Source: Candidatus Doudnabacteria bacterium (GTDB lineage Bacteria; Patescibacteriota; Doudnabacteria; UBA920). Taken from it: a stretch of DNA of 64,000 nt. The notes below the pieces were generated by a model. That model did not search any database. It saw only the letters and a program-made list of their open reading frames with translations, and was not told where the DNA came from. Positions 31,003 through 62,414 of this stretch are shown piece after piece; position 1 is the first letter of the stretch, and every line of letters starts with the position of its first letter. The position numbers and the translations under genes were made by a program. The stretch is from the NCBI GenBank assembly GCA_016218585.1, contig JACRDK010000031.1, positions 65,764-129,763 on the forward strand. The letters are read 5' to 3'.

Positions 31003-31005
31003 ATT

Positions 31006-38773: not shown

Positions 38774-39811
38774 TTACTGCTCCTGCGACAATGCCTGCCA
38801 AATCCCCGGGTCTTCCCCGCCGAGCCGCCATAAGGCTACCTTTTTCAAACCTAAACTTTTGAGCATGGTTATCCTGGCGGCCAAGCTTTGCCGATCTTCA
38901 AACCAGACCTGTCCTTCGCCGCTGCGGACAATTGGAGCACTGCTGTCGGTATCCCTACTGAGCGCGCCGCTGTTAGCCTGAACCGGACGGACCAGCCGCT
39001 GCCAGGTGCCGGTACGGTAATTGCCTTTGGTCCAATACAAAGCCACAATTGAAACGCCAACGGTAAGCTTCTCCGGCGGAACGGCCTGCAATATATGCTG
39101 CAAACGAAGCCGGCTCCACCACAGGGATGCCGATGGTCCCGGAGCGGTTGAAGCGCGGTGTTCGCCGTAAAGCATTAGCCTCACCGAGTCTGCCGCCACG
39201 CCAATTCTTTTCCAGGACACAAGCGCGCTTTGCGCCATTGTCGGCTCCAAACTTACCGCCACAGTTTTTCCCTTGCTCCTCAGCGCCGCCGAAAGCTCTT
39301 CTACAAAATCGGCCAAAACCGGCAACTGTTTAGGCAGCAAGCCTTCTATGTCGATGTCCACACCGGCATAGTTTTTAGCTTCAACCAGAGCAACAATGTT
39401 GTCCGCCAATGCGGCGCGAAGAGTTGGGTTGGTTAAAACCGGCAGCGCCCACTCCGGATGAGAACCCGAAGCATCCACATTGCTGATTATAGGCCTAAGC
39501 AAAAATCCGTTTTTCTTGACGTCGTTTAGCAGCCGGGAGTCATCTACAAATGCGTTGGGGTTATTTTTCAAAGCCCCATTGCTCTGAACTTGATACCAAG
39601 CCGGGCTCACCTCGGCGATTTGGGCGGAATGGCTTTCCAAACTCGACAAGCCGGCGTCCCAATCGTTCTGATGCAGCCAGGCAATTACGGTGAATTTACC
39701 CCGCTCCTGCGCAATGCCGCTTGGCACCGCAACAAGCAGCGACAAAAAGAAAATTGTCGCATTCGTCATTCTTCCCTCCTTGGAAAAAAATCTCACCAAC
39801 CATTTTTTCAT
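38774..39811 (-). CDS. putative secreted glycoside hydrolase (GH18-like TIM barrel)
   Basis: GVDIDIEG resembles the GH18 DxDxE catalytic motif; signal peptide; in the EPS operon. Confidence 0.4.
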   Translation of the reverse strand: MKKWLVRFFSKEGRMTNATIFFLSLLVAVPSGIAQERGKFTVIAWLHQNDWDAGLSSLESHSAQIAEVSPAWYQVQSNGALKNNPNAFVDDSRLLNDVKKNGFLLRPIISNVDASGSHPEWALPVLTNPTLRAALADNIVALVEAKNYAGVDIDIEGLLPKQLPVLADFVEELSAALRSKGKTVAVSLEPTMAQSALVSWKRIGVAADSVRLMLYGEHRASTAPGPSASLWWSRLRLQHILQAVPPEKLTVGVSIVALYWTKGNYRTGTWQRLVRPVQANSGALSRDTDSSAPIVRSGEGQVWFEDRQSLAARITMLKSLGLKKVALWRLGGEDPGIWQALSQEQ

Positions 39812-41385
39812 TCAGATATTGGTTCAATAACCGCTTTTTTTATTATCAGCGACGCTTTATCAGGCTGCGGATCCCAAACTTTAAAACCTACCGATCCCTC
39901 AATTAGTTTTTCCGACACCCTGTCGGTGGTTAATACCACCTTGCCATTTAGCAAACATCTCGCTCTTCCATCCATAAGCTCAATGCCGGCGGAAATTTCT
40001 TCGGAATTAATTTGCGGGAATTTAAACCACCAGGAAGACACTTCTTTTTTACGGCCATCCGTCACTTCATTAATCGTTATTCCTGCGGAAGAATAATTGC
40101 AGCTCAAATAATTATTATCATCAATATATGCAGCCAGTAGGCTAAAAGATTGCCCTGCTTTCAATTGCACCAGTGAACTAAATTTATATTTTGACAGTTT
40201 ATTTCCACCGTCTAAGTATACAGAAGCTCCGGTCGAAGATGCGGTTGGCGATAAAACCTGTACCCCGTTTTGGCCGACGGAATTTCCCCAGGTAGGGACC
40301 CAATCTTTTGAATTAGAAAAATCTTCACTCCAGGGAAGCTCTTTGGCTATTCCGGCGGTTACGGCATTTAGCAAATCTTTTCCTTGCCAGTTTCCCTCGA
40401 CGGTAATTCGCTTGGCTAAATAAAAGGCTGAATTCTCCGGATAATTTTGGGTAAAATAAGTATCGCTGCGTGTTTGCGTAAAAGCCGTGCTGTAATTTTT
40501 GGCAACTTCCGCCAGTAAAAAATTCTGGTCATTGGGAACATTCTTCGAATCTACGCCATAGTCGCCGTAAGGAAAAGCATAAGCTGCGGGCACCACGCCA
40601 AGCTGATTTTTTAAGTCTGTTTTTATGCCTGAAAGTTCTGTTGCTACCCGATTATGATATTCCTCCTCTGTTTCCAGGCGATTTTTCTGCTCAAGCCAAA
40701 TTCTATTGCTAAGAAAATTTCCGCTGTTGCCGCTGCCGTCTATTGGCCTTGGGTCATGGCCAACTTGGGCGTGAGCCCCCAAATCCCAGCGGCCGCTGTC
40801 TCTCATAAAAGCTAATTCATTGCGATTTAAATAATACGTGGTTTTGTCGTTAAACGAACTGCCGGTAATTACAAACATTGTCGCCCTAAATCCGAGCAAC
40901 TTAAGTACCGGATCAGCGCCGTAAAAACTGTCCTTGCGCCCGTCGTCAAAAGTCAGTAAAAAAGATTTTGTCGGCAGCTTTTTGTCTCCGCGCGCAAAGG
41001 CGCCAAAGTCATCCAGACTCACGGTTTGCCAGCCGGCAGCGGCAAGCTCTTTCATCTGTTCTAAAAATTGTTGTTTGGTGACATTTACGCCGTCTGCTTT
41101 ATCGACAATTCCATGATAAACCAAAACCGGCATTGAACTGGCTTCCCCTGAGGGCGTTTGCGCGCTAAAAGCTCCGGCAACCCGCCCCTGCCCGCTTATC
41201 TCGGCAAAGCCGCTGTCTAAAATATCCATCCTTACCGGCTCGGCTCCAAAAATTTTATTTCCTGCCGTACCGGCAAAATAAAAACTCAAACCGCCGACAA
41301 AGGCTACCAGCCCCGCCGCAAAAATTAAAAAACCTTTTTTTGAGTTGTCTAAATGAGCGTCTAAATTCATTATCGTGTTCCCCAT
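39808..41385 (-). CDS. polysaccharide deacetylase (NodB) domain protein with C-terminal beta-rich domain
   Basis: FLLTFDDGRKD motif; N-terminal TM; overlaps neighbouring genes (coupled). Confidence 0.65.
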   Translation of the reverse strand: MGNTIMNLDAHLDNSKKGFLIFAAGLVAFVGGLSFYFAGTAGNKIFGAEPVRMDILDSGFAEISGQGRVAGAFSAQTPSGEASSMPVLVYHGIVDKADGVNVTKQQFLEQMKELAAAGWQTVSLDDFGAFARGDKKLPTKSFLLTFDDGRKDSFYGADPVLKLLGFRATMFVITGSSFNDKTTYYLNRNELAFMRDSGRWDLGAHAQVGHDPRPIDGSGNSGNFLSNRIWLEQKNRLETEEEYHNRVATELSGIKTDLKNQLGVVPAAYAFPYGDYGVDSKNVPNDQNFLLAEVAKNYSTAFTQTRSDTYFTQNYPENSAFYLAKRITVEGNWQGKDLLNAVTAGIAKELPWSEDFSNSKDWVPTWGNSVGQNGVQVLSPTASSTGASVYLDGGNKLSKYKFSSLVQLKAGQSFSLLAAYIDDNNYLSCNYSSAGITINEVTDGRKKEVSSWWFKFPQINSEEISAGIELMDGRARCLLNGKVVLTTDRVSEKLIEGSVGFKVWDPQPDKASLIIKKAVIEPISE

Positions 41386-42713
41386 TTTCGATTTTGAATG
41401 CTAATCATGGCATAATAGAAAATAAATGACAGAACAAACATATTAAGGGTGGACCAAATAAAAACATAAGGCCAATATTTATTTTCCCTGGACACAAAAC
41501 GATAATAAAGGACAATAGCCACCGAAACCAGGTAAACCCCCAAAATATAATAATAAGGCACAATTCCTTTTACAATCGGGTTGTAAATTAACGCCTTAGT
41601 CGCCATTACCGGCGTGGCAATGGTAATAAATATTAGTGGAAAAAAATAAGTAAGAGCTACAAAGGGATATTGCTTTAAAACAAAGCCGGATGCAAAAATT
41701 GAATTTACAAACCAACCTTTCTTCCAACGAACCTGCTGTTTTAAAAGTTGTCGTAAATTGTCAGGCACAATAGTTTTTGCCAAAACCGTGTCGGTATAAA
41801 TAGTCTTATAGCCTTTGCGCAAAACCCAGTTGGTAAGCGCCCGGTCGTCCCCCCAGCTTACCGGTTTACCTAAAAATCTTTCGCCCAGCCATTGGTCTAA
41901 AATTGGCAGGACAATATTTTTTCTATAAGCTGAGCTGCAGCCGCTGCAGCAAAACACTGTCATAAAGGTCGACTCCGCGGCTTTTAAAATACGGAATGAC
42001 AAAAAATAATAAGCGGCCTGAATTTTAGTTAAAAAATTCTGGTCGGCATTGTCAGGGTCGGCGTGGGCGCAAACCGCGCCAATCTCCGGGTGTCGGAACG
42101 GCGAAATGAACTGATAAAATGTTTCCGGTTCAATATAGCTATCGCTGTCTAGTTGCACGATAATTTCTCCGCGTGCGCGGCGGAATCCTTCGGCCATAGC
42201 CATTCTTTTCCCCTGATTAACTTTCCAATCCACCACTACAAGATTCGGATAAGCTTTTTGCGACTCTCTTAATACCTCAATGGTATTGTCAGTACTGCCG
42301 TCATTTATAATAATTACTTCGAGCAATGATTTTGGATAATCTGCGGCAAAACATTTTTCTACTGTTTTGGCTATGCTTTTTTCCTCGTTTTTGCAGGGAA
42401 CCACAAAAGTTACGCTGGGAAAATATTCGTCATTGGCCTGATTACTGGTTAAACTGTTTTCAATATACTTCCCGCTTTTGCTAAAAATATGAGCCGCTAC
42501 AATTCGCGACAACTGAAAGACTGTAACAAAAACCGTATAAACAAATAGCAAGGGGTCACGGCCAAACTCAGATGCAGTTTTAGTCTTTACCCAAACCACG
42601 GCAAACACCGTAGCGCTAGCCAAAATAAATAAAATCAAGTTAAACCAGGAGGGATTTTTAACCTCTTTGGCAATTAAAATGCTATTCATTGCTGCGGTTG
42701 CTACTCTTGGCAC
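41370..42713 (-). CDS. family-2 glycosyltransferase, synthase type (PgaC/IcaA/cellulose-synthase-like)
   Basis: DGSTD, DSDS (DxD) and QVRWKKG (QxxRW) motifs; flanking TM helices. Confidence 0.7.
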   Translation of the reverse strand: MPRVATAAMNSILIAKEVKNPSWFNLILFILASATVFAVVWVKTKTASEFGRDPLLFVYTVFVTVFQLSRIVAAHIFSKSGKYIENSLTSNQANDEYFPSVTFVVPCKNEEKSIAKTVEKCFAADYPKSLLEVIIINDGSTDNTIEVLRESQKAYPNLVVVDWKVNQGKRMAMAEGFRRARGEIIVQLDSDSYIEPETFYQFISPFRHPEIGAVCAHADPDNADQNFLTKIQAAYYFLSFRILKAAESTFMTVFCCSGCSSAYRKNIVLPILDQWLGERFLGKPVSWGDDRALTNWVLRKGYKTIYTDTVLAKTIVPDNLRQLLKQQVRWKKGWFVNSIFASGFVLKQYPFVALTYFFPLIFITIATPVMATKALIYNPIVKGIVPYYYILGVYLVSVAIVLYYRFVSRENKYWPYVFIWSTLNMFVLSFIFYYAMISIQNRKWGTR

Positions 42714-42732
42714 GGCTGCCCCCTTTCGCTAA

Positions 42733-43425
42733 TTAAACTAAACGTTTATTAAACTTTAAAATCTGTTTGGCAATTGGCGACCGGAGCAAATGCGCATTAG
42801 GAATAACACAATGCCCGCCAATCGGGCCGTCTTTATGATTCAAATAAGGACGCACCACTTCCAAACGGCCCAGTTCCGAATAGCCGGCGTTATAGTCTTT
42901 ATTGGCGGTTTTGTAAATGGCTTCAAAGTCTAAATTATTTCTTTCGCACCAGGCGTAAATTTCTTTCTCTAATATTATCTGCCAGCCATACTGAGTTGTG
43001 TCCCACAGCTTAATGGCCTCGGTAGTTTCTTGTTCGTTATAACACTTAACCTTTATTCCCAGGGCTTCAAACCAAGCCGCAGCCTGAGTTGCTTTTGGCC
43101 CGCCAAAATATTTTACAAAAATTTTAATTCCCAAAGCTAAGTTTGGATGAACGCCGCGAATCGGCGAATGCACCGCCTGGCACTTTCTGCTGGTGCCAAT
43201 TGGCACGGTTGAATGAATAATGGTAATTTTTGGCTTAAATTCTTTTTGATACTCTTTAACTAATTTAATAAAAGATTTGTCTTTATATGGGAAAGCAATA
43301 TGGAGGACTTCATATTGTTCGGACTTTACATCCCGAAAGGCTAAATCCAAAACATCGCATTTTAATACTTCGCGCAGAGCGCTGCCTACTTCTCCGTAAC
43401 CAACTATCAATTGATTTTTTTCCAT
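42733..43425 (-). CDS. hypothetical Rossmann-like protein (GYGEVGSAL)
   Basis: 230 aa, first gene of the EPS operon. Confidence 0.4.
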   Translation of the reverse strand: MEKNQLIVGYGEVGSALREVLKCDVLDLAFRDVKSEQYEVLHIAFPYKDKSFIKLVKEYQKEFKPKITIIHSTVPIGTSRKCQAVHSPIRGVHPNLALGIKIFVKYFGGPKATQAAAWFEALGIKVKCYNEQETTEAIKLWDTTQYGWQIILEKEIYAWCERNNLDFEAIYKTANKDYNAGYSELGRLEVVRPYLNHKDGPIGGHCVIPNAHLLRSPIAKQILKFNKRLV

Positions 43426-45125: not shown

Positions 45126-45614
45126 ACTCTATAAATCTATTTTAAAGTCGTATTAAAAATTTTGCCCCTTGCTGGGGCAAAATGCTAATAAATTATACTA
45201 CTATATTTGCTCTTAGTCAATCCGGGCCTTAGTTTAGGAAATATGTTATAATTTTTTCTATTTCTGTGGATAATTTGAAAATAAAAATAAAATCAAAAAA
45301 GCATTTTTATTTGGATTGTAAGACATCAGAAAAAATAAAAAAATAACCTTTTGTAAAACAAATTCTCTTCATTTTAGATATACCATAACCGCAAAAAAAC
45401 TTGTCTTAATTAAGTTGCAGATACTTTTTAAATCCAGGCGTAGTAATTTATAAAAAGTTTTTTAAATTATTTTACTGAATTATTGTAAGCTGTTTCACAT
45501 TCCCTACAAAATTCTTAGACATTTAAAACCAACTTTATTTCTTCCAATCTCCTCTATATTAGCAATTAGAAATCTTTTTTTAAAAATGAGATAATTAATA
45601 TATAGGAAAAAGTC

Positions 45615-48600
45615 TTGAAAATAGAAAAGTCAAAATTAAAAAATAGCTTTTTGGGCGGAATGCCGAAAGCAGAAACACTCAAAAAAAATTTGGGGGGTTT
45701 TTTAATTATTTGCATTTCCTTCTCTCAAACCATTGCTCCCTGGGCCATTGCTGCCACCCCGACCGATAATGCAAGCGCAAACTACACCACAGAACAATTT
45801 TATCCGGAACAAATTTTACAAAACTCCGATGACTCTCTCCCCTATGCCTGGGCGGCTTCTGAAAACGCCTTGACTCGCGAGCTTGCAGACAGCGCACCCT
45901 TAGAGCAATTCTCAACAAGCAATTCCGCAGTACTGGCCAATTCAAAAACTGAGGCCACTTCCACCCCGTCAGACTTGCTGGCGGAACAACCTCCTCTTGA
46001 AAATAATAATTCAACTACCACAGCCAGTTCAACCAATATTGAAGTTCCTCCGGCGGTCTCTGAGGCCAGCTCAACGGAAATTAAAATTTACGAGGCGGAT
46101 GTCTCGCCTGCAAACCTCTCGGAGCAAAACCAAATAGAAAATTCCGAGAGCTCCACTTCTCCGGATGTTTTGGATTCTAACCAGAACTCTCCAACCAATC
46201 AAACAAATTCAACTGAAACAGAAATCACGCCAACAACAACTCAAAGCAGCGACACAGAAATTACACCGAGCACAACGCCAAGCAGCGTCACCCCGCCAGC
46301 CGCAACTATTAACAATGAAGACAACTCGTCAACAACGCCGCCGGACATAGCGAGCGCGACGCCGGTGGAAATTTTGCCGACACCGGAACTTAGCGCCCCA
46401 GTTTTGGAATACGGACATTTTACCAGTAGCCAAAATTCCTCGGATAAAAATAATTTTAACAACCCGGCCCAGGCAAGAATAAAACTGTCGTTTGCTTCTC
46501 TGCCGCTTATTGCCGGAAAACTTATTTTAGAATATTCAGTTGCCAGCTCTTCCTGGCAAACTCTCTCGACTGTTGCGCTAGACGGCCAAAGTTCAAATGC
46601 GGAGCGAAACGGCTTCTTTTCTGCCGAACTACCGCAAACAGCTATAAATGATTTATCAACTCTACATGTAAGGCTAAAAATATCCGCCCCGCAAACCAGC
46701 TGGCAAAATATTTTGCCTAGCGAATTATTTTATTTGGATTCTATCTGGCTGGAAGCAGATTACAAAAACACGCTTCCGGAAATTGACGAAGACCAGCTTG
46801 CCGCGACTGACCTTGGCAATTTAACTCCCGAGGAGTTCGCCCATTTAGATTTTTTCAGCCCGCTTATGGAATTATTTATGCCGGCGGACTTATCTGCTAA
46901 TCCAATTACGGTTGGCAGCAAAAAATTAGGCTTTAACTCTCTCCCTTTGCAGATGCTTCCAATAAACGTCTCGACCGACTCGCCAGCTACCAGATTAGGG
47001 CAAAAAGTAACCTATGCCGATGCCTACAAATCCACGGATTTGGAATATATAATGTCTGACTCAGGATTGAAAGAAAACATAATCCTAAAAGATAAAAATC
47101 ATCCGTCTAAATTCCGCTACCTTACCAACTTAGACAAATACGACTCTGTTCAGACCTCTTCTTCGACCATTGCTCTTTTTGCCAAAGGACATAAAGGACA
47201 GCCGCTGTATCAACGCTATGTTCTGTCCGCGCCAATAATGACAGACAGCCAGGGACAGGTTAGTTCGCGGCTTGAATTTAAAGTTAACAAAAATTTAATA
47301 ACTTTAATTCCGGACCCGGCCTGGCTAAAAACCGCCAGCTATCCGGTTACTGTTGACCCGAACGTCAGCTTAAGCGTTTTAAATGTTTCCTCTTTTCCGG
47401 TAGCCGGAGAATTTTGGACTATTGATTTTACGACAGTCGGGCAAGATAACTTAACAATAACCCCGGCTGACCAGGCAACCGTAGATGATATGGAATTTTC
47501 TTCACTAACCTGCGACGGAAATCCAATAAGCGCAAATGTTTCCGCCGGCGGACAGGTGGCGGTTAACAACTGGTCGTGCGACGGCATTGGTGAGGTAAAA
47601 TTCTTGGACAAAAAAACCGGACACCACCAAATGATATTTAATTTTGGCGATGCCAGCCAGGATGCTTATAACGGCTCCAACACTTGGAATGGCTTAGCCG
47701 GAGACAGCAACTGGGCTACCGGCGGCAACTGGTCATTGGGAACAGCCCCGGCGCTGGCTGACGATGTAGTAATTAGCACGGCGGCGACCATAAACATTAG
47801 CAGCTCCACCGCAATAAATTCGTTAACTCTTGGCAACTCCGGCGGCGGAGTAGCGACTGTTTTAAATTTTAATTATGACGCAATTGGCGGACAGCCTCTT
47901 AGCATTACCGGCAACCTTACTGTGTATAGCGGCGCCAGCATTACCCACACGGTAAGTTCTGCCGGATCTGTTGTAGGAACTGTAAATATTTCAACCGGCG
48001 GAAATTCCACCATTACGGGAAGCATTAGCTTAAATGCCAAAGGGTATACCGGCGGTTACGGACCCGGCAAAGGAACCGACGACTTAAGGGCGGGCGGAGG
48101 CGGTTATGGCGGCAACGGCGGAACCGGAAATTTGGGGGCTTTGGGCGGAACAAGCAATGGCTCAACTACAGTGCCAACCTCTTTGGGTTCCGGCGGCGGC
48201 AACTCGGGATGCGGAAGCACCGGCGGGACAGGAGGAGGAGCCTTAAAATTAAGCACAACCGGAACAACAACAATTGCCGGAACTATTACCGCCAACGGCG
48301 GAACCGGCGCAACCCCCTGCTGGAACTCGGGCGGCGGCAGCGGTGGTTCAATTTATATTATTACAAATGTCTTAACCGGAGCCGGAAGCATTACCGCCAA
48401 CGGCGGCGTTGGCGTTACCGGCGGCAACGCCTCAGGCGATGGCGGCGGCGGAAGAATTGCCATAAATTATACCACTGACAATTCCACCATAACTTATTCC
48501 GCTTACAGCGGCGCCGGACAGCTTTATGGAGGAAGCGGGACGGTTTACAAAAAAAGCCAGGCGCAAAGCACGGGCGATTTAACATTTGATAATAATAACT

Positions 48601-51600
48601 TAGGCGGCAGCACCGACACATCTTTTGGCAAAAGCATTTTAGGTTCCGCCTCTTATAATTCCATTACAATAAAAAATTCTGCCTCATTATATTTAACCGC
48701 GTCTTCGGCGACTGCCACAACTTTAACTCTTTCTAACAATGGCTTATACGATGCCAAAGCCAGCACGACTTTAAGCTACTCAACTTTGAACTGGGGCGGC
48801 ATTATTGTTGACAGCGGAGGAACTTTGCCGGTTTTAAATCAAAATCAAGACATAACTATTCCAACCAGCTCCATATTGTCATTTAATGTTTTAAGCGGAA
48901 CCCGCACTTATAACAATGTAACCGTAAATGGAACGCTTACCAACACCGCAAATTCATCCGCAACAACAGGCACGGTTTCTTTGTATAAAATAAATTGGTC
49001 AGCAACTAATAATTTAACTGTTGGTCCTTCGGGCAGCATAAATGTTGACTCAAAAGGTTATCCTGGCGGCGCAGGCCCCGGAGCAGGCGGCACCGGAACT
49101 CAGGCGGGCGGCGGCGGCTACGGCGGCAAAGGCGGGGCGAGCCCAACCCCGGTAGCCGGAGGCGTTACTTACGGCTCAACATCCAGCCCTGTTAGCCTTG
49201 GATCGGGCGGCGGCAACACCGGGTGCGGCACTGTCGGAGGAATTGGTGGCGGCGCTGTTCAATTAACAGTTAGCGGAACCACGACAATTTTAGGAACTAT
49301 TTCCGCCAACGGCGCCAACGGCGGAACTTACCCTTGTTGGAACTCCGGCGCGGGAAGCGGCGGCTCAATTTTTATTACTACTAGCGGTCTTGCCGGAACC
49401 GGCACGGTTTCCGCTAACGGCGGAAGCGGAGTAGCCGGAGGCAGCGCTTCCGGTGACGGCGGCGGCGGCAGAATTTCTATTATTGCCACAACTAATTCCG
49501 CCAGCCTTACCAGAACTGTAAACCCCGGAACATCATACACCGCCGGAGCGCCCGGCTTGGGAACAACTTACCCGACTGACTTTCCCAGTATGTCCACCCA
49601 GGCGGTATCCAATAACATTACAGGAACGTCCGTTACCGGCAATGGGACAATTAACTCCATAAATTATTATCCCATAACTCAGTACGGCCATGTCTGGTCA
49701 ACCTGGGTCAATCCAACCGTACCAAACACAGATATTACTGACGGCGGATTCGGCACAGCGACATCTTCAAAATACAACCAAGGCGTGGTAGCTAATGCCT
49801 TTGACAACAGCACCAGCACTTTTTGGGGATCGGACCAAGGAACTCCTTACGATGTAGAGTATGACTTTGCTACAACTACGGTAGTAAATAAATACATTAT
49901 TATTTCTTCGCCTTCCGGTGCGCCTACCGACTCGCCAAAGGATTGGCAATTCCAGGCTTGGGATGGAGCTTCATGGGTAAATTTGCAATCCGTTTCTTCA
50001 CAAACAGCCTGGGGTAATACCGAATCAAGAGCTTTTACTTTAGTGAACACCACGCCATATACTAAATACCGCCTATACATTACCGCCAACAACGGCGGCG
50101 GCTGGACCAGGTTTGCCGAATTTCAAATGTTAAATACTTCCAGCAGCGTAGCGGCCAATGGCGCCACTACCACTCCCGGAGCATTTACGTCTAATATTTC
50201 CGGGCTGAGCCCGAACACAACTTACTACACCCGTTCTTATGCCACCACCCAAGCGGGCATTGCTTACGGCGACAACATTTCCTTTAGTACCGGTAATGCC
50301 AACAACGCCCCAAACTCCCCCTCTTCTTTAGGTCCCAATAATTTTACCAGTAATACTTGGACAACTTCTACCGCGCCGACTTTGACTTTTAATTTAACCG
50401 ATCCGGACGGCAGCGATACCGTAAAGTACAGAATAATTTTAGACAACGACAGCAATTTTTCTTCACCGTTAATAGATTATACTTCCTCGCTGCAATCACA
50501 AGGAGCCGCCAGCTTTACGGTTGGCCAAAGCGCCGGCAGCGGCAGCTACTCCATTGGCACTGCCGGGCAAACCCTGTCTGACAATAGTTCATACTACTGG
50601 GAAGTCCAAGCCATAGACAGCAATACCCTTACCTCATCATTTACCGTAGCAAATTCCGGAAGCATAGCTTTTAAAGTTGACACCACGGCCCCGGTCGCGG
50701 GAACGGCAAACTTTGGCGCGATTACAGAAACATTATTAATTGTAACTTCCAGCGGATCTTCAGATGCCGGCTCGGGAATTGCCAGCTACTACTATAGAAA
50801 CTTTACCAACTCTACCACTTACGGGCCAAATCTTTCCGCTTCTTGGAATGACAGCGGACTAACCCCAAACACGCAATATTCATTCAACATAACCTTAACT
50901 GACGGCGTAGGTTTAACTTCCACCACCGCCACATCCAGCGCTTACACTCTTGCCAACATTCCATCCAGCCCGACAACCACGGTAATTTCCAATTCCTCAA
51001 TTTTGCTTTCTTGGAATAATAATTCAAACCCGGCCAATACCGAATACTACGCGGAAAATTCAACCAGCGCATTTAACTCCGGCTGGATTACCGGCACCAG
51101 TACGCTCTTTACCGGCTTGTCCTGCGGCACCTCGTACACTTTTCACGTTCGGGCACGCAATGCTGTTGGAACCGTTACTTCTTATAGCGCCTCTGTTAGC
51201 CCTTCCGCTTCACCTTGCAATAACAATCCCAACACGCCTAGCTCTCTAGGCTACAGCCAATACACTAATGGCGGATGGACAAATCAATCAACGCCGATTT
51301 TGGCATTTAGCTTAACTGATTCAGATGCCTCGGACACTATTAAATACCGGGTGCAAGTTGCAACCAGCAGCGACTTTTCCGCATTGGTGGCAGACTATAC
51401 TTCTCCCCTGCAAGCACAAGGAGCGCAAGCTTTTACCGTTGGACAAGCAACCAGCACCGGCAGCTACGCGGTTGGTTTTGCCGGACAAACTTTGGCGGAT
51501 AATTCAAACGGTTATTATTGGCGGGTAATGGCCATAGACAACAGTTTAGCAACTTCATCCTGGGCCAGCGCAGCCGGCGGAGCGGTTGCTTTTAAATTAG

Positions 51601-54596
51601 AAACCGTGGCTCCGACAGTTGGAAGTTTGAGCGTTACCAGCACAACTACCAATGCCGTATCTCTTTCATTTAGCGGCGCAAGCGATTCAGGCTCCGGCTT
51701 AACAGCCACGCCATATATTTATTTCAACACCAGCAATTGGAATTCATCCGGCAATACCGCAGCCACTACCTGGACTAATTCCGGGCTTGCTGCGGGAACT
51801 TACTCCTATAAAGTTAGGGTAACTGACAATGCCGGAAACTATACCGAAGCTTTATTGCCTCAAACAGTAACTGTCTCAGGCGACGGTGGGGGCGGCGGAG
51901 GCGGCGGCAGCGACCCATGGACCGGCGGAGTCACCAACGGCTTTAGCGTATTTATAAACCAAAATGATTCCATAACAAATACTAACAATGTAACGCTGCA
52001 GTTAACCGGCCAACCCGGCACAACGCAGATGTTAATTTCCAATCTGTCTAATTTTTCCGGCGCCAGCCTAGAGCCGTATGATACCACAAAATTCTGGGAT
52101 CTTTGTTCCGGTTTGGGCAGCTGCCTAAATGGCACTTACACCGTTTACGCAAAATTCTATAATTCTTTAAGCCAAAGCTCGGGCACTGTTTCAGACAGCA
52201 TAACTTATCAAATTCTTAACAGCTTAAATCCGGGCACTTTATCCTTAACCGGCGTCAGCACAAGTACAGCAAGCATTTTAATTAGCGGCTCGAGCGACGC
52301 AGTTTACGGCTTAGCCGCAAGCCCTTACACTTTTATTAACCGTACCAACGGAAATCAGTCTGCTACCAGTTCTGTCTCATCTTGGATAAATACCGGGCTT
52401 ACTCCAAATACCCAATACTACTATTATGCGATTGTAGGAAACGCCAATTCCACTTACGGGTACACTTCAGATATTAGTGCTTATACTTTAGCCAACCCGC
52501 CAACCTTACTCGCAACAACTTCTATTACCAGCTCTTCAATAGGACTTGCCTGGAGCGCAAACAACAACCCCGTTGGAACCGAGTACCAAATTCTCAACCA
52601 AACTGCCGGCACCTCCTCCGGCTGGATAACATCTACCAGCACTACAATAAGCGACTTAACCTGCGCCAACTCTTATTCTTTTAAAGTTAAAGCGCGTAAT
52701 GCTAACGGCGTAGAAACAACATACTCAAATCTAATTACGGAAAGCACTTCCGCCTGCCCTGTCACGCCGCCGCCATCAGGTGGAGGCGGTGGCGGTGGAG
52801 GCGGCGGGCAGCCGGTAGTCCCGCCAACGGACACAACCCCCACGCCGGCCCTTGTTTGTCCCGCTCCGGGCGAGGATGAATTTAACGCCTGTTTCTATAA
52901 TAGTATGGATTTAAGCTCTCCTGCGGCGACCGGAACCACAAAAGAAATTAATTTTGATTGGGGTTTCGGCTCCCCCGCAACCGGAGTTAGGGTTGATAAC
53001 TTTAGCGCCCGTTGGCAAGGTTATTTTAATTTTGAAAACGGATTATACCGTTTTTCCGCCACTAGCGATGACGGAGCAAGAGTTTATGTTGACGACCAAT
53101 TAGTTATTAGCCAATGGAATGACCATCCGGCTACCAGATATACAAATGATATTAGGCTCTCCGCCGGCAGGCATTATGTCTTAATGGATTACTATGACAA
53201 TATGGCCAGCGCCATAGCCAAACTTTCCTGGCAAAAAATAATAGCTTCTCCGGCAACTTCAACTCCGCCGCAAACGCCTCCGCAGACTCCGCCAAGCACC
53301 ACTCCGACAAATCCGCAAACCAGCACCAACCCGAGCACTCCGACAAATCCGCCGGTTGTTGTAGTAACTCCTCCGGTAAGCACTACAATAATTCCGCCAA
53401 CTGCGCCAATTACAAACCCTTCCCCCGCCACATCTGTCACCCCCACAGTTCCAAACACCGACACCAAACTCTCTCTTCCGACTATTGAGCTGCCTGACCT
53501 AAGCGGCATTGGCAATGAAGTAAAAATTCTTTCCAGTTCCGTTCTTTCTACTTCTCTGCTCCAGGCAAAGAAATTCTTTTCTTATGCTTTAGTCGAGCCG
53601 GTAAGCTCACTAGTGGGAACAATGTTTAAAATTCGCAACTCCTCGCACACAGCCGTGGGCGTAACTGCTTTAACGCTCGCGCCGGCAAGTTTTTACCTGG
53701 AATACTCCTTAGCCAGCTACGGCTTAAACATAAATGCCGCGGGAACTTTTGCGGACATTTGGCTTAGATTATTGCAATGGTTCTACGGCCTCCTTGCCAT
53801 AACAGGACTCAAGAGAAAACGCCGCTACTGGGGAACGGTTTATGACAGCGAAAGCAAACAACCGCTGGACCCGGCGATTGTAGAGTTAATTGACCCCGCC
53901 ACAGGAAAAGTTATTGAACAAAACATTACCGACATGCACGGAAGATTTGGCTTTTTAGACCGACCGGGAAAGTTTATTATTCGTTCTACCAAAACCAATT
54001 ACCGCTTTCCTTCGGAAATAGTCTTAGGAAAAACCGATCTGGTTTTCGACAACCTCTACCACGGAGAAAAATTGGAAATTGCTTCCGATAACGATATTAT
54101 CACCCCAAATATCCCAATGGATCCAATGGCGTTTGATTGGAACCAAATGGATAAACAACGGGTGGTAAAAATCAACCCCCGCATGGAATATATTTTCCAT
54201 ATAATTTTGCAAACTCTATTTTGGTCCGGCGCGCTGTTTGTGCTGATTAATTTTATTCTTCTGCCAAACTTGTTCAATTCAATTTCCGCTTTGTTCTATG
54301 TTGTTATGGTAATTATGCGCAAACTTATTCCCCATGCCCACCTATGGGGCCGAGTTGTTTTCCATAACGGCGAAAGAGCTAACCATCTTCTGCTTGAACT
54401 CCACCCGGTAAAAATCCCGACCGTGGTAACCGGCAGAGCTGTAAGCGCCGAAAGCGGCAAATTCTTCTTAAAAGCCATGCCCGGAAACTACATACTAACC
54501 GTAAAAAAAGTAGACGGACTTAACAACACCATACTTTATAAACAGGAAGTCACAGTCGGCAAAGAAGGCGTTGTAAACGAAATTATCAGCTTATAA
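45615..54596 (+). CDS. giant multidomain surface protein (2993 aa)
   Basis: N-terminal TM anchor, Ser/Thr-rich stalk, duplicated Gly-rich beta-helix-like modules, F5/8 discoidin-like domain (about 49780..50130), FN3-like modules, PA14-like domain (about 52985..53230, FSARWQGYF..GARVYVDDQLV), PT-rich linker, C-terminal TM helices with two carboxypeptidase-regulatory-like beta-sandwiches; TTG start 8 nt after AGGAAAA. Confidence 0.7.
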   Translation: MKIEKSKLKNSFLGGMPKAETLKKNLGGFLIICISFSQTIAPWAIAATPTDNASANYTTEQFYPEQILQNSDDSLPYAWAASENALTRELADSAPLEQFSTSNSAVLANSKTEATSTPSDLLAEQPPLENNNSTTTASSTNIEVPPAVSEASSTEIKIYEADVSPANLSEQNQIENSESSTSPDVLDSNQNSPTNQTNSTETEITPTTTQSSDTEITPSTTPSSVTPPAATINNEDNSSTTPPDIASATPVEILPTPELSAPVLEYGHFTSSQNSSDKNNFNNPAQARIKLSFASLPLIAGKLILEYSVASSSWQTLSTVALDGQSSNAERNGFFSAELPQTAINDLSTLHVRLKISAPQTSWQNILPSELFYLDSIWLEADYKNTLPEIDEDQLAATDLGNLTPEEFAHLDFFSPLMELFMPADLSANPITVGSKKLGFNSLPLQMLPINVSTDSPATRLGQKVTYADAYKSTDLEYIMSDSGLKENIILKDKNHPSKFRYLTNLDKYDSVQTSSSTIALFAKGHKGQPLYQRYVLSAPIMTDSQGQVSSRLEFKVNKNLITLIPDPAWLKTASYPVTVDPNVSLSVLNVSSFPVAGEFWTIDFTTVGQDNLTITPADQATVDDMEFSSLTCDGNPISANVSAGGQVAVNNWSCDGIGEVKFLDKKTGHHQMIFNFGDASQDAYNGSNTWNGLAGDSNWATGGNWSLGTAPALADDVVISTAATINISSSTAINSLTLGNSGGGVATVLNFNYDAIGGQPLSITGNLTVYSGASITHTVSSAGSVVGTVNISTGGNSTITGSISLNAKGYTGGYGPGKGTDDLRAGGGGYGGNGGTGNLGALGGTSNGSTTVPTSLGSGGGNSGCGSTGGTGGGALKLSTTGTTTIAGTITANGGTGATPCWNSGGGSGGSIYIITNVLTGAGSITANGGVGVTGGNASGDGGGGRIAINYTTDNSTITYSAYSGAGQLYGGSGTVYKKSQAQSTGDLTFDNNNLGGSTDTSFGKSILGSASYNSITIKNSASLYLTASSATATTLTLSNNGLYDAKASTTLSYSTLNWGGIIVDSGGTLPVLNQNQDITIPTSSILSFNVLSGTRTYNNVTVNGTLTNTANSSATTGTVSLYKINWSATNNLTVGPSGSINVDSKGYPGGAGPGAGGTGTQAGGGGYGGKGGASPTPVAGGVTYGSTSSPVSLGSGGGNTGCGTVGGIGGGAVQLTVSGTTTILGTISANGANGGTYPCWNSGAGSGGSIFITTSGLAGTGTVSANGGSGVAGGSASGDGGGGRISIIATTNSASLTRTVNPGTSYTAGAPGLGTTYPTDFPSMSTQAVSNNITGTSVTGNGTINSINYYPITQYGHVWSTWVNPTVPNTDITDGGFGTATSSKYNQGVVANAFDNSTSTFWGSDQGTPYDVEYDFATTTVVNKYIIISSPSGAPTDSPKDWQFQAWDGASWVNLQSVSSQTAWGNTESRAFTLVNTTPYTKYRLYITANNGGGWTRFAEFQMLNTSSSVAANGATTTPGAFTSNISGLSPNTTYYTRSYATTQAGIAYGDNISFSTGNANNAPNSPSSLGPNNFTSNTWTTSTAPTLTFNLTDPDGSDTVKYRIILDNDSNFSSPLIDYTSSLQSQGAASFTVGQSAGSGSYSIGTAGQTLSDNSSYYWEVQAIDSNTLTSSFTVANSGSIAFKVDTTAPVAGTANFGAITETLLIVTSSGSSDAGSGIASYYYRNFTNSTTYGPNLSASWNDSGLTPNTQYSFNITLTDGVGLTSTTATSSAYTLANIPSSPTTTVISNSSILLSWNNNSNPANTEYYAENSTSAFNSGWITGTSTLFTGLSCGTSYTFHVRARNAVGTVTSYSASVSPSASPCNNNPNTPSSLGYSQYTNGGWTNQSTPILAFSLTDSDASDTIKYRVQVATSSDFSALVADYTSPLQAQGAQAFTVGQATSTGSYAVGFAGQTLADNSNGYYWRVMAIDNSLATSSWASAAGGAVAFKLETVAPTVGSLSVTSTTTNAVSLSFSGASDSGSGLTATPYIYFNTSNWNSSGNTAATTWTNSGLAAGTYSYKVRVTDNAGNYTEALLPQTVTVSGDGGGGGGGGSDPWTGGVTNGFSVFINQNDSITNTNNVTLQLTGQPGTTQMLISNLSNFSGASLEPYDTTKFWDLCSGLGSCLNGTYTVYAKFYNSLSQSSGTVSDSITYQILNSLNPGTLSLTGVSTSTASILISGSSDAVYGLAASPYTFINRTNGNQSATSSVSSWINTGLTPNTQYYYYAIVGNANSTYGYTSDISAYTLANPPTLLATTSITSSSIGLAWSANNNPVGTEYQILNQTAGTSSGWITSTSTTISDLTCANSYSFKVKARNANGVETTYSNLITESTSACPVTPPPSGGGGGGGGGGQPVVPPTDTTPTPALVCPAPGEDEFNACFYNSMDLSSPAATGTTKEINFDWGFGSPATGVRVDNFSARWQGYFNFENGLYRFSATSDDGARVYVDDQLVISQWNDHPATRYTNDIRLSAGRHYVLMDYYDNMASAIAKLSWQKIIASPATSTPPQTPPQTPPSTTPTNPQTSTNPSTPTNPPVVVVTPPVSTTIIPPTAPITNPSPATSVTPTVPNTDTKLSLPTIELPDLSGIGNEVKILSSSVLSTSLLQAKKFFSYALVEPVSSLVGTMFKIRNSSHTAVGVTALTLAPASFYLEYSLASYGLNINAAGTFADIWLRLLQWFYGLLAITGLKRKRRYWGTVYDSESKQPLDPAIVELIDPATGKVIEQNITDMHGRFGFLDRPGKFIIRSTKTNYRFPSEIVLGKTDLVFDNLYHGEKLEIASDNDIITPNIPMDPMAFDWNQMDKQRVVKINPRMEYIFHIILQTLFWSGALFVLINFILLPNLFNSISALFYVVMVIMRKLIPHAHLWGRVVFHNGERANHLLLELHPVKIPTVVTGRAVSAESGKFFLKAMPGNYILTVKKVDGLNNTILYKQEVTVGKEGVVNEIISL

Positions 54597-56459: not shown

Positions 56460-57023
56460 ATGGAAACAAACCTGGCGCAAATTATCGCCGAGTGCCAAGC
56501 CGGACAATTAGAACAATTCGCGGTTTTATACGATGCCTATGTGCGAAAGATTTATGACTTTATCTTCTACCGCACTATGCATAAGGAAACCGCTGAGGAT
56601 TTAACCAGCCTGACTTTTACCAAAGCGCTGGAAAGAATAAATACCTATCAAGCCAACAAAGGCAGCTTTAGCGCCTGGCTTTACCAAATTGCCCGCAACA
56701 CATTAATCGATAACTATAAAAACCACAAGCCCACCGCGGCAGTTGAGGAACTGGAAAATTTTGCCAGCGGGGAAAACCTGGAACAACAAACCGAAGCCAG
56801 GCTGAATTTGGAAAAAGTTAAAAACTTTTTACAAACCCTGGACGAAGAAAAAAGAGAAATTGTCACAATGCGCGTATGGGACGGCCTGTCTTACAAAGAG
56901 ATTGGCGACATTCTGGGAAAATCGGAAAGTTCCTGCAAAATGAGCTTTCTGAGAATTATGGAAAAACTAAATAAAGAAGCGGCTTTTGCCTTAATTTATT
57001 TATTGATGTTAAAAATCGGCTAG
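56460..57023 (+). CDS. ECF-type RNA polymerase sigma-70 factor
   Basis: Region 2 (YQIARNTLIDNYK) and region 4 HTH (LSYKEIGDILGKSESSCKMSFLR). Confidence 0.75.
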   Translation: METNLAQIIAECQAGQLEQFAVLYDAYVRKIYDFIFYRTMHKETAEDLTSLTFTKALERINTYQANKGSFSAWLYQIARNTLIDNYKNHKPTAAVEELENFASGENLEQQTEARLNLEKVKNFLQTLDEEKREIVTMRVWDGLSYKEIGDILGKSESSCKMSFLRIMEKLNKEAAFALIYLLMLKIG

Positions 57024-57045
57024 TTAAGCCAAATGAAAGGATTTT

Positions 57046-58644
57046 ATGGAAAATATAGAAGTAAAAATTGAAGAGCTTACCAAAGAATTATTAGCTTACG
57101 ACAAAAACTTTATGGCACACGAAGCGGAACTTAAAAAAATTATCCGCCAATTGCTGATGTCCAAACCGGACACTAAATTTGATCCGCAATTCGCGGAGAA
57201 CTTGCGCCGCCAACTACTGCTTAAAGCGGAAGACTTAAAAACCGCGTCCTCGCCGAGGCTGTGGAAAAGCTGGAGAACCTTGCTGGTTCCGGCAATGGCC
57301 GTTGCGGTTTTGATTTTTGGCGGCATATATATTAATAATAAAAACAATAAAACCGTTATCGAAACCCCGCTGCTCTCGGATAAAATAGAAATTGATTCCA
57401 TCGGCAAAAATGCTTTTGGAAAAATCGCTTTAAATGACATCGGCTCAGGAGGTACAGGCCGCGGGGGCGGAGGCGGCGGCAGTGAAGCCTTAAGCGCCAC
57501 TCCGATAGCCGCGCCAAAAAACGCGGACTCATCTAATACCCAAACCCAAACAGCCGCGGAACCCGATTCCGGAACCGCTTCCAATTTAGCCAACACCAAC
57601 AGTTTGGCTATGCCAACAACAGTAGCCAGCCCGGTGGCCAGCGGCATGGGTGGTGGTGGCGGCGATGCTAAAATGATAGCCCCCTATCCAAACTATCGCT
57701 ATGTTTATAAAGGCGAACCGCTAAAACTCACCGACACGGAAGTAAGCGTCTATAAAAGGCAAAAAGGCATGACCAGCTCGGCCGCCGCGCAATTTATTAA
57801 GCAGCTGCGTTTTGGCTTAATTGATATGACCAAATTCAACAATGTTGATGTTGATTTAATAAGCCTAATGGAGAAAAAAGAATACGGCTATAACTTAACC
57901 ATAAACTTCCGCGAAGGAATAATTGCCATTAACGAAAATTGGGAGCTGTGGCCAACCCCGGATAAACAATGCCAAACTCCGGAATGCTATGACTCTTTGC
58001 GCCTAAAGCCGAGCGATGTTCCGGCAGACGAAGAAATTCTGTCTATTGCTTCCAAATTTTTATCCAATTACAATATTTCCACCGCCAATTACGGCCAGCC
58101 ACAAATAATGAAATTCTGGCAGCGGGATTTGGAAATGGCAACGGATAAAAATCAAGTTTATATTCCCGATGTAGTGTCGGTAATTTATCCGCTAATTATA
58201 GAGGGCCAGCAGGTTTATGACGAAAGCGGTTCCCCTGCCGGACTTGCGGTTAACGTTAATATCCGCGTAAAAAAAGCTTCGGGCGTGCAAGAACTTGCCG
58301 TGCAAAAATACCAGTCTTCTTCTTACCCGGCTGAAACAGACGCAAATAGAATTATTAAGCTTGCGGAAAATGGCGGCTTTAGAACAATTTACTATGCGCA
58401 GGAAGGCGTAAAAACTGAAGACATTGAATTAGGAACGCCGACCAAGTCTCTGGTAAAAATCTGGCAGTATAAAAACGGCACTTCTGATGAATTATATATC
58501 CCGGCTTTAGTTTTCCCGGTAACTTCCGCCCCTAAAGATTCCCGCTACGGATATTTTTACAAAACCAATGTCATTGTTCCTTTAGCAAAAGAAATTTTAG
58601 ATGATGCTAACAATGGCGGCGGACCAGTACCGCTAATGAAGTAA
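57046..58644 (+). CDS. putative anti-sigma factor / membrane protein (cytoplasmic N-domain, one TM, Gly-rich and globular extracytoplasmic domain)
   Basis: Gene order and topology are typical of ECF anti-sigma factors. Confidence 0.5.
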   Translation: MENIEVKIEELTKELLAYDKNFMAHEAELKKIIRQLLMSKPDTKFDPQFAENLRRQLLLKAEDLKTASSPRLWKSWRTLLVPAMAVAVLIFGGIYINNKNNKTVIETPLLSDKIEIDSIGKNAFGKIALNDIGSGGTGRGGGGGGSEALSATPIAAPKNADSSNTQTQTAAEPDSGTASNLANTNSLAMPTTVASPVASGMGGGGGDAKMIAPYPNYRYVYKGEPLKLTDTEVSVYKRQKGMTSSAAAQFIKQLRFGLIDMTKFNNVDVDLISLMEKKEYGYNLTINFREGIIAINENWELWPTPDKQCQTPECYDSLRLKPSDVPADEEILSIASKFLSNYNISTANYGQPQIMKFWQRDLEMATDKNQVYIPDVVSVIYPLIIEGQQVYDESGSPAGLAVNVNIRVKKASGVQELAVQKYQSSSYPAETDANRIIKLAENGGFRTIYYAQEGVKTEDIELGTPTKSLVKIWQYKNGTSDELYIPALVFPVTSAPKDSRYGYFYKTNVIVPLAKEILDDANNGGGPVPLMK

Positions 58645-60825: not shown

Positions 60826-61755
60826 ATGAAGCAAAAATTTGTTACCATCGGACTTATCCAGAGCAAAGTTTCCTCCGATATTCCGGCTAACGTAAAAAAA
60901 ACGGAAAAGATGATTCGGGCTGCGGCAAAAAAAGGCGCGCAAATTATTTGCCTGCAGGAACTTTTTCAAACGCCTTACTTCCCCCAATGGGAAAATATGG
61001 ACAAAAAATCCTACGCCGAAACTATTCCCGGACCAACTTCCACTGCTATGCAAAAACTCAGCCGTGAGCTGGGCGTGACTTTAATTGTGCCAATGTACGA
61101 ACAACTCGGCAATAAATTTTTTAACACTGCGGTTGTGTTTGATTCCAAGGGCAAGAACATTGGCAAGTACCACAAAATTCACATTCCCCACGACCCGGGT
61201 TTTTACGAAAAAGAATACTTTGAGCATGGGCAAGCCGGATATAAAATCTTTACCGTTCAGGGCGTAAAATTCGCCGTGCTTATTTGCTACGACCAGTGGT
61301 TTCCGGAAGCAGCCAGAGAAGTGCGCCTTAGCGGCGCTGAAATAATTTTCTACCCTACCGCAGTCGGCGACATTGTCGGCTATAAGGCCGAGGGCGACTG
61401 GCACGATGCCTGGGAAACGGTTCAACGCGGGCATGCTATTGCCAACAGCTTGTATGTTGCCACGGTAAACCGAACAGGACGCGAAGGCCGAATGCAGTTA
61501 TTTGGGCAATCTTTTATTTCCGACCCATTTGGCAAAATTTTAAAACGAGCCTCCGTAGACAAGGAAGAAATCTTAGTGCAAAAATTGGACCTTACCAAAA
61601 ACGAATTCTTTTCCGAAGGCTGGGGCTTTATGCGCAACCGCAGGCCGGATACCTACAAAACTTTAGTTACCAATAAGCTCACCAAAAAATCAAAGAAGTT
61701 GCAAAACGTGGCTCACTATAAAGATGAAATTAAAGCCTTGGGGGCAAATAAATGA
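60826..61755 (+). CDS. aguB: carbon-nitrogen hydrolase (N-carbamoylputrescine amidase-like)
   Basis: E-K-C triad context: [16 protein letters not shown]; adjacent to agmatine deiminase. Confidence 0.7.
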
Positions 61756-62411: not shown

Positions 62412-62414
62412 TCT

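Follow-up and report, generated by a model that had tools for sequence, protein, structure and literature searches.

A giant, probably adhesive surface protein of a Patescibacteria bacterium and the conserved C-terminal module that may anchor it

The Patescibacteria account for a large part of the diversity of bacteria and seemingly live attached to other cells, and how they display proteins at their surface is largely obscure. What, then, is encoded by an open reading frame (ORF) of 2993 codons in a 64-kb stretch of DNA (64,000 nucleotides, here called the window) from a Patescibacteria (Candidate Phyla Radiation, CPR) bacterium related to Doudnabacteria-type metagenome-assembled genomes (MAGs)? 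We give a probability of roughly 0.65 to the reading that the product is a Sec-exported, C-terminally anchored, lectin-bearing fibrillar surface adhesin that stands on a lineage-specific anchoring module. Judged from its sequence, its most likely job would be to bind carbohydrate, or another surface ligand, on a polymer or a partner cell, and the domain content makes host or partner-cell attachment, as proposed in an earlier note on this DNA, plausible.

The frame, which the earlier note had described as a single ORF of about 48% GC, was found to be uninterrupted with a GC content of 0.480, and its length far exceeds what chance would produce. An in-frame ATG at 45660 opens MPKAETLKKNLGGFLIICISFSQTIAPWAIAA, which has the positively charged n-region, the hydrophobic core and the AXA site (read directly from the sequence) of a Sec-type signal peptide. 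This ATG is probably the true start of the gene, giving a protein of 2978 aa, and because of these three features we consider the protein to be Sec-exported.

To map the exported part we judged Pfam profile matches against the gathering score of each family (PA14 24, fn3 25, F5_F8_type_C 28.2 and CarboxypepD_reg 32.3 bits). The two lectin-type domains proposed earlier were both recovered: PA14 (PF07691) scored 70.1 bits (E 2.2e-19, residues 2425-2540, profile positions 7-134 of 147), and F5_F8_type_C, or discoidin (PF00754), scored 28.8 bits (E 1.5e-6, residues 1381-1503, profile positions 3-127 of 127), with a weak match of the related model PF22633 as well. The fn3 profile (PF00041) matched three stretches at 49.3 bits and Ig_Rha78A_N (PF25788) two stretches at 42.8 bits, and further diverged FN3 copies were found by self-alignment, so that the two FN3-like units reported previously are indeed FN3 but too few: the FN3/Ig-like units number five or more, and two Rha78A-type Ig units come in addition. 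Self-alignment showed three diverged internal duplications, including that of the Gly-rich blocks discussed below; the other two pair residues 1562-1766 with 1868-2074, and 1704-1868 with 2218-2381 (45% identical). A segment without Pfam hit that lies between the stalk array and the FN3 pair is weakly self-similar, over its last ~35 residues, to part of 1965-2073. Two runs of ten glycines encoded by GGN repeats had also been reported; the second is present as described, and the first proved to be Gly-Asp followed by eight glycines. The low-complexity region that follows the signal peptide contains a 36-nt tandem repeat at 46218-46291 (Tandem Repeats Finder). The head region matched no Pfam family (DUF7948 reached only 16 bits), had no relative in the PDB by sequence search, and has 7 database relatives only. 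All peptide strings quoted in the earlier note were found in the translation.

The last ~330 residues form a conserved module that consists, in order, of a hydrophobic helix (Ha), an amphipathic helix (Hb), a KRKRR cluster, a first beta-sandwich, a transmembrane hairpin (TM2-TM3) and a second beta-sandwich. An AlphaFold2 (AF2) model built on 34 sequences had a mean predicted local distance difference test (pLDDT) score of 82, with values above 90 in the core and in both sandwiches; in module numbering its helices lie at 4-35 and 37-62 (both of low confidence), 72-89, 202-211, 215-242 and 246-264, and its sandwiches at 100-197 and 272-352, which is the interleaving of membrane helices with two CarboxypepD_reg-like sandwiches that had been read from the sequence earlier. 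Foldseek superimposed the sandwiches on the transthyretin-like domains of carboxypeptidase D (3mn8, 5aq0) with a root mean square deviation of 2.1-3.1 Å and a target-normalised TM-score of 0.74-0.75, and further matches were to CnaB2, pilins, transthyretin and NOMO in the BOS complex; no solved structure covered the whole module in the Foldseek search (query-normalised TM-score at most 0.24). In the giant protein CarboxypepD_reg (PF13620) matched two stretches at 25.3 bits (E 2e-5), and in family members the same profile scored above its cut-off (50.6 bits in P0034 and, over two stretches, 65.2 bits in P0036). Conservation comprised 16 invariant and 27 nearly invariant columns, mostly in sandwich 1 and the juxtamembrane segment (WGTVYD..K.P.DP, ITD..GRFGF, NIPMDP..DWNQ..K), and the family motifs [KR]KRRxWGTVYD..K.P.DP, ITD..GRFGF and NIPMDP..DWNQ are all present in the giant protein. 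Conservation of this kind exceeds the need of a passive spacer. Elsewhere in the window, neither the module nor any other domain of the giant protein was found again.

The family of the module was collected with the last 353 residues of the giant protein as query. A sequence search returned 36 proteins that were 29-75% identical to the module, the only name among them being 'carboxypeptidase-like regulatory domain-containing protein [Patescibacteria group bacterium]'. In GTDB genomes, with one taken for each species, a pattern scan located 528 loci, essentially all from Patescibacteria; the window's own genome is not in this set, and the best match there was 69%. The best 80 of the loci came from Doudnabacteria, Paceibacterota, Zambryskibacteria, Nomurabacteria, Kaiserbacteria and generic Patescibacteria MAGs, frequently two or three to a genome. 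A profile search over 1.84 billion cluster representatives (50%-identity clusters) gave 2513 proteins at E≤1e-30; at a threshold of E≤1e-10 there were 4399, with generic multi-repeat CarboxypepD_reg proteins among the weaker matches. About 140 of the best 150 profile matches end at the last residue of the protein (lengths 265-3490 aa, 50 of the 150 above 1000 aa), and in all 80 fetched loci the module ends the ORF, with a tail of at most 31 aa apart from one exception of 101 aa. The C-terminus, which had seemed unusual for an adhesin, instead belongs to a large conserved family of some 2,500 representatives.

The 80 fetched loci fall into two classes of approximately 40 each, short stand-alone proteins (285-340 aa) and long proteins (500-2947 aa). 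Ahead of the module, the long forms carry mutually unrelated sequences (Cys-rich NPTDP repeats, GW-type repeats, PA14 and giants), and all of those examined start with a signal-like hydrophobic segment; the module looks like a lineage-wide cassette attached C-terminally to many unrelated ectodomains. Neighbour-joining placed the ~40 complete stand-alone proteins in one clade apart from the fused modules and grouped the window's module with the long forms, among which the only other short ORFs (L072_95 and L073, apparent contig-end fragments) fell as well. Giant and stand-alone copies occur together in several genomes, as with L005 and L021, which share a contig, and with L006 and L061. Around the stand-alone gene the order of ORF sizes 350-266-178-650-277-[module]-130-181-181-140 was repeated in 21 of 22 loci (L018-L061), as judged by size only; the gene identities were assigned by Pfam in a single locus, L020, where positions 4126-14085 encode MreB, MreC, MreD, a PBP2 transpeptidase, FolD, the module, a single-domain response-regulator receiver, YdjM, NusG and L11. 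Within the window itself there is no stand-alone copy and no mre cluster.

The membrane topology of the module was approached through charge. Family-wide, the mean number of Lys plus Arg residues was 4.4 in the 10 residues after Hb, 3.3 before TM2 and 2.1 after TM3, with 0.6 in the Ha-Hb loop and 0.1 in the TM2-TM3 loop, and because of these counts the face that carries both sandwiches would, by the positive-inside rule, be cytoplasmic. Ha lies upstream of Hb in every long form (Kyte-Doolittle maxima 1.1-2.5), and the stand-alone forms lack Ha and often have Lys/Arg-rich N-terminal tails. Mean hydrophobicity was 0.46 for Hb, and the pairs of mean hydrophobicity and hydrophobic moment were 0.63/0.17 for TM2 and 0.58/0.28 for TM3 (remaining values in Table 1). 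We consider it somewhat better than an even bet that the ectodomain lies outside, Ha spans the membrane, Hb is an interfacial or bundle helix on the inner face, and both sandwiches are held in the cytoplasm by way of the TM2-TM3 hairpin. The pair of sandwiches that had been described as membrane-embedded is real as a pair, and the charge pattern suggests a cytoplasmic rather than an embedded position. Two alternative topologies are that Hb spans the membrane with Ha peripheral, or that both sandwiches lie outside despite the charges, which would fit the usual extracytoplasmic place of this fold and the peptidoglycan-synthesis neighbourhood of the stand-alone gene.

Read as an adhesin, the protein would be built outward from the cytoplasmic membrane. 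The Pro/Thr-rich segment next to the membrane probably crosses the wall and would be followed by PA14, the FN3/Ig stalk units with their poly-Gly hinges, F5/8C, the two Gly-rich solenoid blocks and, at the tip, the clade-specific head; the hinges would give flexibility, and PA14 and F5/8C would bind glycans. The ~330-aa module would hold the protein in the membrane in place of a sortase signal or other short sorting signal, and the conserved sandwich 1, if cytoplasmic, could dock a conserved intracellular partner. We propose that the module takes the place of known anchoring devices because features of these devices are missing from the giant protein: there is no LP.TG motif anywhere in it (even the nearest loose variants lie well away from the C-terminus), no RTX nonapeptide (GGxGxDxUx) alongside the Sec-type signal, no PEP, PGF or terminal GG motif of an exosortase, archaeosortase or rhombosortase substrate (PEP-CTERM, PGF-CTERM, GlyGly-CTERM), and no Pfam family of autotransporters or type V secretion, the C-terminus being made of transmembrane helices and sandwiches, not of a beta-barrel.

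Several observations weigh against this reading. The discoidin match passes its cut-off only marginally and the CarboxypepD_reg match in the giant protein itself falls below its own, the AF2 confidence of Ha, the proposed anchor, is ~50, and the Ha-Hb loop carries few positive charges. Transthyretin-like and CarboxypepD_reg sandwiches are usually extracytoplasmic, so that a cytoplasmic placement, for which the positive-inside rule is the sole argument, would be unusual. Ig_Rha78A_N, PA14, F5/8C and beta-helix modules accompany glycan-degrading enzymes too, which makes a catalytic role possible, and the synteny of the stand-alone gene may merely reflect low rearrangement among related genomes.

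A more far-reaching version of the adhesin reading, which we put forward as tentative, is that the module is an undescribed Patescibacteria-wide anchoring platform, analogous to LPXTG/sortase or PGF-CTERM, in which sandwich 1 docks a conserved partner, possibly the elongasome or a CheY-like receiver, and so couples surface fibrils to intracellular machinery. The choice of these partners comes from the mreBCD-PBP2-folD-[module]-receiver order in which the stand-alone paralog sits, which we take as a hint. A literature search, limited in reach, found no description of the module or of the Gly-rich block.

The same architecture could also belong to a structural component of the envelope, S-layer-like or a scaffold of a sheath or fibril, that spaces or protects the cell and for which the module is a general membrane foot. 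A long repetitive array of Ig/FN3 units and solenoids, an anchor common to hundreds of different ectodomains, and a weak Foldseek likeness to the membrane-anchored S-layer stalk protein SlaB (8qox_B, E 3.6e-3) are in keeping with this, but two lectin-type modules (PA14 and F5/8C) and a fast-diverging tip are more adhesin-like, the closest relative (L002) being 49% identical in the N-terminal half and 73% in the C-terminal module, and no lattice-forming domain was recognised. We regard an envelope component as unlikely.

The two Gly-rich solenoid blocks are central to a second alternative. That they are duplicates, as noted earlier, was borne out by self-alignment, in which residues 844-975 and 1182-1314 are approximately 56-65% identical (DNA 71% identical over 128 nt). 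An AF2 model of the block based on 50 aligned sequences was confident (pLDDT 92.3, predicted TM-score 0.91) and showed short strands at regular spacing; ~65 residues per block (GY.GG.GPG...LGSGGG...) had no regular structure by DSSP and yet a pLDDT above 90. Foldseek found no significant match in the PDB (best E 0.8, TM-score 0.24-0.31); the weak neighbours were all beta-solenoids, namely pectate lyase, IcsA, tapirin and ice-binding proteins. Among predicted viral structures the best matches were uncharacterised Gly-rich proteins of prasinoviruses, Pandoravirus and Orpheovirus (E 1e-5, TMq 0.45). No Pfam hit to the pectate-lyase-type right-handed beta-helix (Beta_helix, PF13229, and relatives) was obtained even at E≤10, and comparison of the Gly-rich blocks, the head and the C-terminal module with the PDB by sequence gave nothing meaningful. 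An ALK-type glycine-rich domain was also considered and was dropped for want of a Pfam hit. The block had 84 sequence homologs, from Patescibacteria, Lentisphaerae, Kiritimatiellae, Phycisphaerales, Desulfobacterales and one Pacearchaeote, none of which is named and which carry few precomputed Pfam domains, all unrelated to the block.

The predicted repetitive fold with short regular strands resembles the right-handed beta-helix passenger, lyase and ice-binding domains (IcsA, pectate lyase, tapirin, DUF3494), and 'beta-helix' is, for the model, a reasonable name for the fold class. The blocks differ from those domains in the lack of a significant PDB match, in their long stretch without DSSP structure and in the lack of Pfam cover. 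With a confident fold and neither a Pfam family nor a significant PDB match, the Gly-rich block is an unannotated fold family, one that is common to Patescibacteria, bacteria of the Planctomycetes-Verrucomicrobia-Chlamydiae (PVC) group, DPANN archaea and giant-virus proteins.

If the solenoid blocks were catalytic (lyase- or hydrolase-like), the giant protein would be a cell-bound polysaccharide-processing enzyme with PA14, F5/8C and Ig domains as accessory carbohydrate-binding modules, a possibility that we rate as improbable, and below that of an envelope component. The weak structural neighbours of the block do include pectate and alginate lyases and pectinases, Ig_Rha78A_N and PA14 are domains typical of glycosidases, and genes for GH18, a deacetylase and GT2 are clustered 2-7 kb upstream. 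Against this, the structural matches are all insignificant (E at least 0.8, TM-score at most 0.26), no glycoside hydrolase, polysaccharide lyase or carbohydrate esterase family was matched in Pfam or NCBIfam, the Gly-block family is without an annotated member, and the upstream cluster is on the opposite strand with an ABC-ATPase gene in between.

A giant transmembrane receptor, in which the binding of a ligand outside is signalled by way of conserved sandwiches in the cytoplasm, either to a CheY-like receiver or to the machinery of cell shape, is slightly less probable again. Such a role would account for the near-invariance of sandwich 1 and the juxtamembrane DWNQ throughout the family and for the charge pattern that places the sandwiches in the cytoplasm, and it would agree with the position of the stand-alone paralog after mreBCD-PBP2-folD and before a single-domain receiver gene. 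However, Pfam identified no kinase, cyclase or other signalling domain, the adjacency to a receiver is limited to the stand-alone clade and to related genomes, and the giant gene has no such neighbour in the window. A polymorphic toxin was also considered and was dropped in the absence of a C-terminal toxin domain.

The earlier note had named an assembly artefact of collapsed repeats as the finding that would undo its reading. Among the relatives of the giant protein, L002 aligns with residues 20-2993 at 49-73% identity and has kept the convergent helicase gene. At 43-45% identity, L005 (2665 aa) and L011 (2947 aa) follow the first ~1300 residues collinearly and then continue through the Ig/FN3 units and the C-terminus, and L006 is a partial match. 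All four are independent Patescibacteria MAGs, and the three collinear relatives (43-62% identity) come from different samples. DNA repeats inside the giant gene reach at most the 71% identity over 128 nt given above. Because of the collinear relatives and this ceiling on repeat identity, the ORF is not a collapsed repeat. Nearly all relatives are from Patescibacteria MAGs, which fits the reduced-genome episymbiont lineage suggested earlier.

A 5.9-kb Logan contig, L001, from an independent short-read data set (SRR12113407), found through the neighbouring helicase only, is identical to the window over the last 1.8 kb of the gene, including the G10 tract, the length of which is the same. It ends at 52778, exactly at the 5′ edge of the GGN tract that encodes G10, and this break could be due to k-mer ambiguity or to strain heterogeneity just upstream. 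An exact-sequence look-up of the giant protein from the ATG at 45660 gave no match. In the relatives, linkers of G6-G11 occur at other positions, and L005 and L011 have three solenoid blocks, not two; block number and hinge length thus differ between species. We also noted that L002 (uncultured Patescibacteria MAG CAZFQP010000021.1) shifts frame at 9862-9868, just before Hb, so that the annotated product is the 265-aa module only (P0001), probably through a frameshift or assembly error that hides a gene of ~3,300 aa. Internal duplications and GGN tracts, the break of L001 at the G10 edge and the frame change of L002 near the anchor might be taken to indicate an artefact (collapsed or chimeric repeats) or a pseudogene, but 2993 codons without interruption, a domain order kept end to end in L002, L005 and L011, internal DNA repeats of only 71% identity and the exact agreement of L001 make this very improbable indeed.

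Table 1. Features of the giant gene and its leader, with positions in the window
Feature	Position	Strand	Basis or remark
AT-rich divergent intergenic region, 534 bp, 24.5% GC	45126..45659	.	Separates ABC-ATPase gene (-) from giant gene (+)
Giant ORF	45615..54596	+	2993 aa from TTG; only long ORF at that site
Sec-type signal peptide MPKAETLKKNLGGFLIICISFSQTIAPWAIAA, no lipobox	45660..45755	+	Hydropathy peak at residues 29-47; AXA motif
S/T/N/P/E-rich low-complexity region	45756..46511	+	Composition, residues 48-299
Conserved N-terminal head, membrane-distal	46512..47711	+	Residues ~300-700; 35-49% identical in L005, L011, L006, L012, L016, L017
Gly-rich solenoid block 1	47712..48644	+	Starts NWS..P..DDVVI, then KGY.GG.GPG ... 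GGGSGGSIYI ... GGGGRIAI
Gly-rich solenoid block 2	48732..49604	+	Diverged duplicate of block 1
F5/8 type C (discoidin) domain	49755..50123	+	PF00754
Stalk array: two Rha78A-N-type Ig and three FN3/Ig-like units, internally repeated	50298..51854	+	PF25788, PF00041, PF19077; self-similarity 1562-1766/1868-2074
Poly-Gly linker G8, preceded by G-D (GDG8)	51885..51908	+	
~105-aa segment, no Pfam hit	51912..52229	+	Segments of L006, L014, L017 align here
FN3 pair	52266..52757	+	PF00041, best stretch 2295-2374; 45% identical to 1704-1868
Poly-Gly linker G10, imperfect GGN repeats	52779..52808	+	
PA14 domain	52887..53234	+	PF07691
Pro/Thr-rich linker, candidate wall-spanning segment	53247..53489	+	Residues 2545-2625; P 19 and T 18 per 100 residues
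Helix Ha, hydrophobic, proposed membrane-spanning anchor	53643..53720	+	Mean hydrophobicity 0.55, hydrophobic moment 0.12; in all ectodomain-bearing family members examined
Helix Hb (amphipathic, conserved Arg), then KRKRR cluster	53748..53825	+	Hydrophobic moment 0.37-0.41 vs 0.12-0.28 in other helices
Beta-sandwich 1, transthyretin-like/CarboxypepD_reg	53832..54125	+	Most conserved part: WGTVYD..K.P.DP, ITD..GRFGF, NIPMDP
TM2-TM3 helical hairpin, 3-residue uncharged loop	54177..54326	+	Hydropathy, AF2 helices, charge analysis
Beta-sandwich 2, transthyretin-like, closes C-terminus	54348..54593	+	Profile stretches and AF2

The giant gene is richer in GC than the window as a whole (0.434). GC at its second codon position is 0.53, compared to 0.32-0.41 in neighbouring genes, and GC at the third position is 0.47, equal to that of the neighbours; because the excess sits in the second position while the third is neighbour-like, it is accounted for by amino-acid composition (richness in Gly, Ser, Thr, Ala and Pro), and horizontal transfer as its source was ruled out. 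Upstream, the AT-rich leader reported earlier is present, and promoter-like sites or hexamers in it were not above shuffled expectation. Within the same intergenic region a GC-rich hairpin, ATTTTGCCCCAGCAAGGGGCAAAAT, with a 10-bp stem and T-runs on either side, lies at 45159-45183, 34 bp upstream of the start codon of the ABC-ATPase gene. The cluster beyond that gene, at 38774-43425 (-), comprises a GH18 (chitinase-like) gene, a polysaccharide deacetylase, a GT2/chitin-synthase-like glycosyltransferase and a weakly UDP-glucose-dehydrogenase-like ORF, which suggests synthesis and remodelling of a chitin-like polymer. Downstream, a DEAD-box helicase gene converges on the giant gene at a distance of 42 bp, and just past it, at 56460-58644 (+), lie an extracytoplasmic function (ECF)-type sigma factor gene and, immediately after it, a 532-aa ORF without Pfam hit that could be an anti-sigma factor.

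Other features of the window were also noted. A group I intron (RF00028, 59 bits) lies at 15836-16128 (+), preceded by an 81-aa ORF that is GIY-YIG-like by eye and directly followed, at 16149-16166, by a weak match to a tmRNA 3′ end (E 0.008); ARAGORN found no tmRNA or tRNA in the whole 64 kb, and the region 15539-16166 may be an intron-interrupted tmRNA gene. The segment 18001-20600 is a GC-rich island (0.546, compared to 0.43 for the window) with a 615-aa GTG-start ORF (-) without Pfam hit and long overlapping ORFs (+). At 28113-33308 (+) a 945-aa ORF without Pfam family precedes the gene for a 409-aa protein whose N-terminus carries a pilin methylation motif (N_methyl), and the region may encode a large type IV pilin-like surface protein. 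Genes for a carbon-nitrogen hydrolase, a HAD hydrolase and an agmatine-deiminase-type protein (PAD_porph) stand in a row at 60826-63467 (+), consistent with an agmatine-to-putrescine pathway.

Published work describes Patescibacteria as rich in surface proteins and reports adhesins to be indispensable for epibiotic growth (PMC11665869, PMC10633639). Provided that the module serves as a general anchor, one profile hidden Markov model could list the candidate surface proteins of any CPR genome and so supply targets for cryo-electron tomography, for proteomics and for the new Saccharibacteria genetics; should the tentative platform idea hold, presence of the module would mark the CPR 'surfaceome'.

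Among known systems, the LPXTG fibrillar adhesins (MSCRAMMs, SdrD, Cna-type) share with the giant protein a Sec signal, a ligand-binding tip, a repeated Ig/FN3/CnaB-like stalk, a Pro-rich wall-spanning segment and a hydrophobic helix with a positive cluster toward the C-terminal end, and the sandwiches of the module structurally resemble CnaB and SdrD-B domains. They differ in that their sorting signal of ~35 aa is cleaved, whereas the giant protein has a folded module of ~330 aa with three further helices and two sandwiches (255 residues folded in the AF2 model after the KRKRR cluster, unlike the ~40-residue sortase tail), and in that the anchor module also exists as an independent conserved gene. 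RTX adhesins (LapA, SiiE, MpIBP) are of the same size class, follow the same logic of tip, Ig-like extender and anchor, and carry PA14 or lectin-type modules. Unlike them, the giant protein combines a Sec signal with the lack of RTX nonapeptides, and where RTX adhesins have an N-terminal plug in an outer-membrane TolC-like pore, its anchor would be C-terminal, in the cytoplasmic membrane of a monoderm-like lineage. NOMO of the BOS complex has, like the module, a transthyretin-like sandwich that adjoins a membrane helix (Foldseek 9c7u_B, E 5e-5), and weak NOMO_5th Pfam hits occur in members of the module family; NOMO differs in being a eukaryotic protein of the endoplasmic reticulum lumen with a single transmembrane helix, whereas the module has two sandwiches interleaved with a transmembrane hairpin. 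As a giant adhesin the protein would thus be a new member of a familiar type, a single lectin-bearing fibre, and its anchor an uncharacterised lineage-wide module that recurs on thousands of otherwise unrelated proteins.

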